DNA from: Shigella phage ESh24
Length of the DNA stretch: 64,000 nucleotides
Direction: 5' to 3' (one strand)
Sequence record: ON528734
The first letter of the stretch is position 1, and every line of letters starts with the position of its first letter. Positions 18,283 through 19,138 of the stretch are shown here, piece by piece. Under the pieces are notes generated by a model that did not search any database, was not told the DNA's origin, and saw only the letters and a list, made by a program, of their open reading frames with translations. A program made the position numbers and the translations under genes.

Positions 18283-18737
18283 TGGAATTTAAAGACTTTT
18301 CAACGGGTCTTTATGTAGCAGCTAAGTTTTCAGAATTAACACTTGACGCGCTGGAAGAACTCCAGCGCTCTTTACGTGTTCCTAATCCAGTTCCTAGAGA
18401 AAAAATTCATTCGACTATATGTTATTCGAGAGTAAATGTTCCATATGTTCCATCGAGTGGAAGTTTTGAAGTAGCTTCTTCTGGACATTTAGAAGTATGG
18501 AAAACACAAGATGGATCGACTCTTGTACTTGTGCTAGATTCTGAATATCTGCGCTGTAGACACATGTATGCGCGGGCACTAGGTGCTACACATGATTTTG
18601 ACGATTACACACCGCATATAACATTGTCTTATAATGTTGGGCCCTTATCATTTAGCGGTGATGTACAAATTCCGGTCGTATTAGATCGTGAATACAAAGA
18701 GCCTCTTAAACTCGATTGGGCAGATGATTTAAAATAA
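18279..18737 (+). CDS. 57B: gp57B; 2H-phosphoesterase fold (the T4 57B product is the described anti-CBASS nuclease Acb1)
   Basis: 152 aa; two H-x-T motifs (IHSTI, PHITL); position directly after 57A. Confidence 0.8.
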
Positions 18738-18749
18738 TTTCACAAAGTT

Positions 18750-18779
18750 GTTTACATACTGATGAGGTAGTGATACTAT
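18750..18779 (+). promoter_or_regulatory. early-type promoter (GTTTACA -35, TGATACTAT -10) inside a 10-bp inverted repeat
   Basis: gtttaca at 18750-18756; -10-like element in the loop of hairpin 18760-18789. Confidence 0.5.
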
Positions 18780-18809
18780 TACCTCATCAAAATTAATTAG
18801 GAAAATAAA

Positions 18810-19067
18810 ATGAAAACTTTCAAAGAGTTTGCTATAAAAACTACTATTACTGAATCTTCCCACGGTATGGAAGTAAAACTTGGAATGGCTTTAGCTGAAG
18901 CTGAGCGTCTTTTCTCTCGTATTAAAGAACTTGCTGCTGCAGTCGATCCTTCGTCTTTTAAAGGAGACCAAACGAAAGTTAAAGCACTTTTAGCATTATG
19001 CTCCGATGCGGGAGAAATCGCTAAAAATGGTTCTAAGATGAAGAAACGATTAGAAGATTTAAAATAA
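18810..19067 (+). CDS. internal-protein-like small protein at the ipI locus (capsid-targeting-like N-terminus)
   Basis: 85 aa, MKTFKEFAIK… resembles the MKTYQEFIAE capsid-targeting sequence; LAE cleavage-like motif; sits where T4 has ipI. Confidence 0.6.
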   Translation: MKTFKEFAIKTTITESSHGMEVKLGMALAEAERLFSRIKELAAAVDPSSFKGDQTKVKALLALCSDAGEIAKNGSKMKKRLEDLK

Positions 19068-19079
19068 TTTCACAAAGTT

Positions 19080-19110
19080 ATTTACATAGGGTTTTAGTTG
19101 TGATACTATT
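19080..19110 (+). promoter_or_regulatory. early-type promoter inside a 7-bp inverted repeat
   Basis: tttaca…tgtgatactatt flanked by atagggt/accctat (19086-19117); near-identical to the 18750 promoter. Confidence 0.45.
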
Positions 19111-19138
19111 ACCCTATCAACTACTGAGGAGAATAAAA

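Follow-up and report, generated by a model that had tools for sequence, protein, structure and literature searches.

The internal proteins (IPs) of T-even phages are encoded at two loci, one between 57B and trna.4 and the other beside gene e, and T4 IPI* inhibits the GmrSD type IV restriction enzyme of E. coli CT596. T4 Ip1, Ip2 and Ip3 have each been described as inhibiting one GmrSD-type type IV restriction enzyme; the authors of that work expect GmrSD variants to be the targets of every protein encoded at the two Ip loci, and the panel test of ten ip genes that they describe is given as yielding no new pairs (PMC12373910). T4 IPI has 95 aa and its mature form 76 aa (PMC3012670), which places the cut after ITE19. 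A second body of work concerns PeSLs, elements in which an early promoter is combined with a stem-loop. Arbiol 2010 presents them as linkers for modular shuffling in RB49/phi1, for which promoter and terminator activity as well as mini-circle formation have been demonstrated (PMC2839356). Comeau 2014 extends PeSLs to the PST/T4 pair, describing five IP differences between these phages and a consensus TTTACW-N17-TAYWAT (PMC4122927). As for the IP loci themselves, Arbiol 2010, citing Repoila, portrays their elements as built on T4 early promoters with weaker A/T-rich stem-loops and calls them analogues, not homologues, of PeSLs (PMC2839356). The same paper draws a comparison with integron gene cassettes (PMC2839356), to which the IP locus is akin as a fixed platform that swaps promoter-served small accessory ORFs. 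It is unlike them in having neither an integrase nor attC, exchange being presumed to proceed via the general T4 recombination machinery.

Against this background, we analysed 64,000 nucleotides of DNA from Shigella phage ESh24 (ON528734), the whole of which is referred to below as the window, and focused on an 85-aa gene flanked by two similar promoter blocks. This gene proves to be ip5, which is widespread as a replacement of T4 ipI at the variable IP locus and has been named before. Our overall reading, which we consider very probable, is that this is the hypervariable ipI locus with its ip5 allele, where cassettes would be swapped through PeSL-like blocks and whose product would be packaged, injected and directed against host defence. 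The initial annotation of this DNA was right at its core in seeing one cassette replaced by another at the ipI locus between repeats of a promoter block. What it describes is genuine yet unexceptional, since ip5 was named long ago and the mechanism is that of the already published model of PeSL-like shuffling. The allele, the polymorphism of the locus and its promoter/stem-loop flanks are all already present in the literature and in GenBank annotation. The naming of Ip5 reportedly goes back to Repoila et al. in 1994 (EMBO J 13:4181).

The window is part of a Tequatrovirus (T4-like) genome, for which the closest record is that of Shigella phage Shfl2 (95% over 13 kb), and the genes on its plus strand follow one another in the order 1, 57A, 57B (acb1), the 85-aa gene, trna.4, trna.3, trna.2 and the tRNAs (Table 1). 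The ip5 site lies between 57B and trna.4, which are the conserved left and right anchors of the locus, and is collinear with T4 ipI, i.e., with one of the two T-even IP loci. Collinearity and alignment with T4 thereby confirm the locus that had been named at the outset. In passing, 57B is labelled "RNA ligase" in RefSeq (NC_019503, NC_000866 and others), which is inconsistent with its Pfam assignment to Acb1.

Table 1. Features of the ip5 locus (positions in the window unless another record is given) and of the Ip5 homologue of RB69
Feature	Position	Strand	Remarks
Gene 1 (dNMP kinase)	17276-18040	+	
57A	18040-18282	+	
57B (acb1, anti-CBASS 2H-phosphodiesterase), 152 aa	18279-18737	+	Pfam PF23474 Acb1, E = 2.7e-60; collinear with T4 57B
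Repeat copy 1, PeSL-like block	18722-18790	+	
Copy 1, stop codon in A/T-rich tract	18735-18737	+	
Copy 1, -35 TTTACA	18751-18756		17-nt spacer to the -10
Copy 1, TG-extended -10 TACTAT	18774-18779		
ip5 ribosome-binding site AGGA	18799-18802	+	7 nt before ATG; read from sequence; kept upstream of T4 ipI
ip5, 85-aa ORF including stop	18810-19067	+	
ip5 leader (capsid-targeting sequence)	18810-18854	+	MKTFKEFAIKTTITE; IPI type
Mature Ip5 (70 aa, SSHGMEV...RLEDLK) plus stop	18855-19067	+	Putative
Repeat copy 2, PeSL-like block of second type	19052-19120	+	
Copy 2, stop codon	19065-19067		
Copy 2, -35 TTTACA	19081-19086		
Copy 2, -10 TACTAT	19104-19109		
trna.4, 61-aa predicted membrane protein	19139-19324	+	PHROG 1692, E = 6e-35; collinear with T4 trna.4
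trna.3	19325-19729	+	
trna.2	19732-20019	+	Followed by the tRNA cluster
RB69 Ip5 homologue	1938-2219 of locus L041 = 64922-65203 of AY303349		Different leader MKTYMNFYQNLSLNE; longer C-terminus

The identity of the gene rests on several searches. With 18279-19330 as a megablast query, 249 phage records show a coverage of at least 80%, the best-ranked at about 97-98% identity, and all the matches listed are Tequatrovirus or close relatives. In several records (ime09, ECML-363) this gene bears the label "Ip5" or "internal head protein", and PHROG 3499 "internal head protein" matches its product end to end (E = 7e-49), which, together with an IPI-type leader and a position at an IP locus, upholds the earlier view of the gene as internal-protein-like. 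When the putative mature part (residues 16-85) is used as a tblastn query, 494 records are found, 231 of them at an identity of at least 99%. This part is 100% identical in T6, RB3, RB32 (where it is called "Ip5"), RB68 and others, 98.6% identical in T2 ("ip5: Ip5 internal head protein") and 91% identical in RB70 Ip5 (UniRef, Q38378), and the gene of these T-even phages likewise has 57B and trna.4 as its neighbours. Mature Ip5 at an identity of at least 90% is present in about 268 phage records and the T4-type IPI mature part in about 280; ip5 and ipI are two roughly equally common alleles of one locus. Compared with its counterparts in the nearest records, the ip5 of the window shows leader point differences only (AIK vs ATK, residues 8-10), with about 2-3% nucleotide divergence.

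Where the two alleles part company is seen in an alignment of the locus from the window, T4 and ime09. The sequences of T4 and the window agree at every position of the aligned 57B end, the first block and the ribosome site, through ATGAAAAC, after which they are unalignable within the reading frame; identity resumes at ATTTCACAAAG, and the two are nearly identical from ATTTCACAAAGTT via the second block into trna.4. The difference between T4 and the window is confined to the reading frame between the blocks, and ip5 replaces ipI within the same flanks, which is the insertion or replacement between promoter repeats that the initial annotation had proposed. It had also envisaged a simpler situation, in which the protein is T4 IPI with minor divergence and the repeat is present in T4, and this turns out to be half true. 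The blocks are found in T4 almost base for base, and the repeat is not peculiar to this genome as had been implied, whereas the 85-aa protein is not a diverged T4 IPI, since BLASTP aligns residues 1-22 only (MKTFKEFAIKT----TITESSHGMEV vs MKTFKEFTSTTTPVSTITEATLTSEV).

Pairwise alignment of 18722-18790 with 19052-19120 gives a direct repeat of 69 nt that is 84% identical, with copy starts 330 nt apart, and a repeat search ranks this pair as by far the longest repeat in 17000-22000; the near-exact recurrence of the 57B end and promoter after the 85-aa gene is thus real. The T4 repeat around ipI measures 54 nt (81%, spacing 367), and what sets the ip5 allele apart is only the additional 15 nt of repeat within the two coding ends. 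The last codons of 57B (GAT GAT TTA AAA TAA) form the start of copy 1, and the final five codons plus stop of 57B and ip5 are one base apart (GATGATTTAAAATAA vs GAAGATTTAAAATAA); the proteins end in ADDLK and LEDLK, respectively, in agreement with the D/L-L-K endings initially described. When one copy of the repeat is searched against the window by blastn-short, its 33-nt 5' part is matched with E = 1.3e-11, and the -10 core forms a second, separate match of 14/14. The 5' half (TTTCACAAAGTTGTTTACA) corresponds to the general consensus of T4 early promoters at the -35 and upstream of it, and it is also present in the window at 50555-50582 (27/28) and 38655-38673 (19/19). Because part of the repeat is generic early-promoter consensus, similarity alone is no proof of a role in recombination.

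Each block consists of a T4 early promoter with a hairpin around its -10, followed by a ribosome site and ATG. The A/T-rich tract at the stop codon (TTTAAAATAATTTCACAAAG) precedes the -35, while AGGA or GAGGAG and then ATG are found 3' of the hairpin, and both promoters (18751-18779 and 19081-19109) are of sigma-70 type with TG, scoring 9/12. In copy 1, 18760-18772 pairs with 18777-18789 over 13 bp, the loop and the 3' arm holding the -10; the minimum free energy (MFE) is -17.4 kcal/mol (z = -3.9), a stability matched by no shuffle out of 200, and z falls to -6.7 for the 39-nt core. The hairpin of copy 2 is an interrupted 7+4-bp stem at 19086-19117 (ATAGGGT..TAGT / ACTA..ACCCTAT), with an MFE of -14.1 kcal/mol over 66 nt and of -12.6 for the 39-nt core (z = -4.7). 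Among the 12 early-promoter-like sites in the window, the ipI-locus pair is the most structured by far (z = -6.7 and -4.7), the local-structure z of the other ten in these 64 kb ranging from +0.8 to -3.5. A scan for intrinsic terminators called none at either block and no T-run follows either stem, so that the terminator component of the PeSL model finds no support in this pair of blocks. Searching 18600-23200 against Rfam at the gathering threshold returned nine tRNAs only, with no match at the blocks.

This architecture is that of the "PeSL-like" element reported earlier from T-even IP loci (Repoila 1994, via PMC2839356, PMC4122927). With the PeSLs of RB49/phi1, PST/T4 and nt-1/KVP40, the blocks share an A/T-rich gene end, a -35 and a -10 at 17 nt, a stem-loop over the -10 and an SD plus ATG, and both window promoters fit the PST/T4 consensus TTTACW-N17-TAYWAT. 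They also resemble PeSLs in flanking variable small ORFs and in lying at indel/replacement junctions, which is manifest here in the swap between ipI and ip5, in the 0-4 cassettes of relatives and in chimeric blocks. There are differences as well. The promoters of the ip5 locus are of the T4-early type (TTTACA...TACTAT), not perfect sigma-70 consensus, and the stems are mixed and A/T-rich, without the G-run/C-run arms typical of RB49/phi1. Furthermore, terminator activity is on record only for an RB49/phi1 PeSL, and mini-circles are likewise known from RB49/phi1.

The hairpin is kept by differing arms across block types (GATGAGGTA/TACCTCATC, GATAGGGTA/TACCCTATC, GAGGGCTAT/ATAGCCCTC and GATGGGATAA/TTATCCCATC), and most of the 46 distinct blocks from the surveyed loci fold at z -4 to -9 with arm sequences that differ. 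We counted pairing in a gap-free alignment of 45 spacer-17 blocks using a fixed 13-pair register, and found that 67% of cells hold a standard pair, vs 30-58% when the partner is slid 1-3 columns, the three innermost pairs being set by TG and TAnnAT promoter positions and uninformative on selection for structure. The covariation score in this register is 0.255, vs 0.04-0.15 when slid, and was reached by none of 500 shuffles. One conceivable reading of these hairpins, which we regard as unlikely, is that they are recombination signals acting at the DNA level—as cruciforms or stalled-fork sites on which a structure-specific nuclease would act—that would focus crossovers at the TGATACTAT loop, with Ip5 neutralising a defence other than the known GmrSD variants. 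If this were true, IP loci would be a recombinase-free, integron-like cassette system.

How variable the locus is became apparent from a scan of IMG/VR with the 57B protein, which gave 36 metagenomic or isolate loci. Across these loci, 0-4 genes with the leader MK(T/S)(F/Y)xEF...xE lie downstream of 57B, at least 30 unrelated mature IP sequences are represented, and in many cases the gene next after the IP array is a trna.4 homologue (MKRCELIRN...). While ip5 is the only IP gene at this site in the window, T2, T6 and others, it is in tandem with a second IP (MKTFKEFINEAADVKVEF...) and accompanied by three blocks in IME537 and at locus L005, and locus L018 has four IP genes, with a diverged ip5 in third place. 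IP cassettes are divided by blocks in many arrays, although some IP genes abut or overlap without a block between them. Chimeric blocks, which combine the 5' arm of one type with the 3' arm of another and have shortened stems, are present in L029 (3473 and 3806) and L020 (3847 and 4178), and look like what crossovers in the shared TGATACTAT core would leave. A weakened stem is also seen in L003 (2300), apparently by point changes in the 5' arm. The family extends beyond this site: RB69 and about 226 related records carry an Ip5 homologue (RB69ORF127c, 54% identical) at the second of the two IP loci, the one flanked by e and denV, which means that the same mature family occurs at both IP loci in different genera.

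In the scenario that we favour, cassette exchange between PeSL-like blocks, the cassette is the reading frame itself, held between two such blocks. The blocks and the first seven leader codons appear to be common to all alleles, so that homologous recombination could swap, add or delete cassettes without disturbing expression. Judging from the comparison and the literature, cassettes would be exchanged by T4 homologous recombination in mixed infection, and we infer that recombination at the blocks is what has caused allele variation. A competing account, to which we likewise give little credence, is that the blocks are alike only through one strong early-promoter consensus, variation being due to illegitimate recombination or homing-endonuclease transfer. 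Other early promoters of the window do share 19-28 nt with the 5' half of the repeat, and a GIY-YIG homing endonuclease gene lies 1.3 kb downstream. However, the boundaries between the T4 and window alleles coincide with the blocks, chimeric blocks join two types at the shared TGATACTAT core, the members of 0-4-cassette arrays are often block-separated (despite the abutting genes mentioned above), and the likeness reaches the -10 flank and the hairpin, beyond what a promoter consensus needs.

Several other features of the tRNA region deserve mention in their own right. The GIY-YIG homing-endonuclease gene (20361-21011; PHROG 314) is located between tRNA-Gly (20283-20356) and tRNA-Ser (21018-21107); in T4, segB is between tRNA-Ile and tRNA-Arg and tRNA-Pro fills the Gly-Ser gap. 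Relative to T4, the tRNA cluster of the window is without tRNA-Pro and has an extra tRNA-Tyr and tRNA-Asn. ARAGORN calls a 97-nt "tRNA-Phe (anticodon aaa)" at 22057-22153, which is unsupported by the Rfam tRNA model and unlikely to be a genuine tRNA.

A recent local tandem duplication of the 57B end and promoter in this lineage, with capture of a new ORF between the copies, is in our judgement very unlikely. Such an event would fit the fact that, from AGAWGATTT through TTTACATA, 35 of 37 bases are the same in the two copies, a stretch that takes in the final five codons and the stop codon of each gene. Nevertheless, T4 has both blocks around a different ORF, which already largely refutes this scenario, and the copies differ in their spacers and stems (types A and B), each type being conserved in other phages. 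Nor do the coding ends require it. A K-stop end (AAATAA/AAATAG) is general among IP alleles, being found in 27 of the 49 distinct ones, usually a few bases 5' of the -35 GTTTAC. With AAATAA just 5' of the -35, the last codons fall inside the A/T-rich upstream part of the next promoter, whose A-rich upstream element appears to constrain the C-terminal codon. Moreover, the diverged Ip5 of L018, third in its array, away from 57B and with an unrelated block after it, still ends in GAAGACTTAAAATAA (EDLK). A duplication of the 57B end is a less likely source of the D-L-K match between 57B and Ip5 than a constraint acting on both genes together with coincidence, and the duplicated gene end of the initial annotation thus becomes improbable. 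We also abandoned the possibility that a crossover within 57B had left the common D-L-K end as its scar, on the same grounds, namely the EDLK of L018 and the K-stop in 27/49 alleles.

The leader of the 85-aa protein ties it to the packaged IPs. Residues 1-7, MKTFKEF, fit the capsid-targeting leader MK(T/S)(Y/F)xEF..., a motif that heads all 49 distinct alleles (related loci plus window), and the leader is of the same IPI type as the start of T4 IPI (MKTFKEFTSTTTPVSTITE). The supposedly canonical MKTYQEFIAE, from which the leader had been said to depart, is a generic leader borne by most alleles in our survey, which we take to be that of IPII/IPIII; according to BLASTP the leader is of T4 IPI's own type. 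ITE at residues 13-15 fits the gp21 motif (L/I)-x-E and aligns with ITE17-19 of T4 IPI, and Ip5 is probably cut by the prohead protease after ITE15, giving ITE15/SSHG (the slash marking the predicted cut). The residues around this site—I13, T14, E15, S16, S17, H18 and G19—are invariant across Ip5 variants, and in P0004 and at locus L018 a shorter leader of generic type (MQTYQTF / MKTYQTFMTE) is fused exactly at the ITE/SSHG junction. The LAE motif highlighted earlier (residues 28-30) was rejected as the protease site in favour of ITE15; it lies inside a predicted helix (17-44). That the 85-aa product is an unpackaged cytoplasmic early protein, its leader being a recombination relic, is extremely unlikely: residue 10 is K where most leaders have E, but the leader aligns with that of packaged and cleaved T4 IPI, the ITE/S junction is invariant in Ip5 variants even where the leader type changes, and both PHROG and GenBank annotate an internal head protein.

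Using a shallow alignment of 6 close sequences, AlphaFold models a disordered leader and two helices (17-44 and 54-84) with a pLDDT of 70, and mature Ip5 is predicted with moderate confidence to be an antiparallel two-helix hairpin. A Pfam search with the 85-aa protein produced no match, a PDB sequence search produced chance matches only (E at least 1.1), and a Foldseek comparison of the Ip5 model with the PDB produced only generic coiled-coil or de novo helical hairpins (E at least 0.29); matches this generic mean that the fold gives no function for Ip5. With T4 IPI/IPI*, Ip5 has in common the locus, the flanking promoter blocks and the leader type MKTFKEF...TITE/, whereas the mature part of Ip5 is unrelated to IPI* in sequence. 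The folds would differ as well, IPI* being made of two beta sheets flanked by helices (PMC3012670) and Ip5 of a predicted two-helix hairpin.

Other genes of the window bear related leaders. Just after the tRNA cluster and outside the two classical IP loci, a 187-aa ORF (22306-22869; PHROG 2280, function unknown) has an IP-type leader (MKTYAEFLTE/AAK...) and is followed by a hairpin plus T-run, CCCTATCTAAATGATAGGGCTTTTT. Two proteins with the leader MKTY(K/Q)EFI(A/T)E are encoded at the second IP locus: one of 193 aa (27137-27718), which matches PHROG 5341 "internal virion protein" and is probably IPIII-like, and an internal virion protein of 157 aa (27827-28300; PHROG 3155).

As to what Ip5 does, the protein probably follows the course of other IPs, its expression depending on a dedicated early promoter as well as on read-through. 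If homology of the leader to that of T4 IPI is any guide, this N-terminal leader would take Ip5 into the prohead core, where gp21 would trim it after ITE15, and the protein would then be injected with the DNA. The most likely role of Ip5 would be to disarm a host defence, which we consider to have about an even chance of being correct. This suggestion stems from the leader, the locus and the analogy with Ip1-3, not from similarity of the mature part. Relative to characterised GmrSD inhibitors, Ip5 shows no similarity to IPI past the leader and no PDB match below E = 1, and the literature searched reports no target for it. What gives the protein its interest is its spread, as Ip5 is present in roughly half of sequenced Tequatrovirus genomes, including T2 and T6. 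Since the three T4 IPs that have been studied each defeat one type IV enzyme, Ip5 is an obvious next candidate in the arms race between phage and host.
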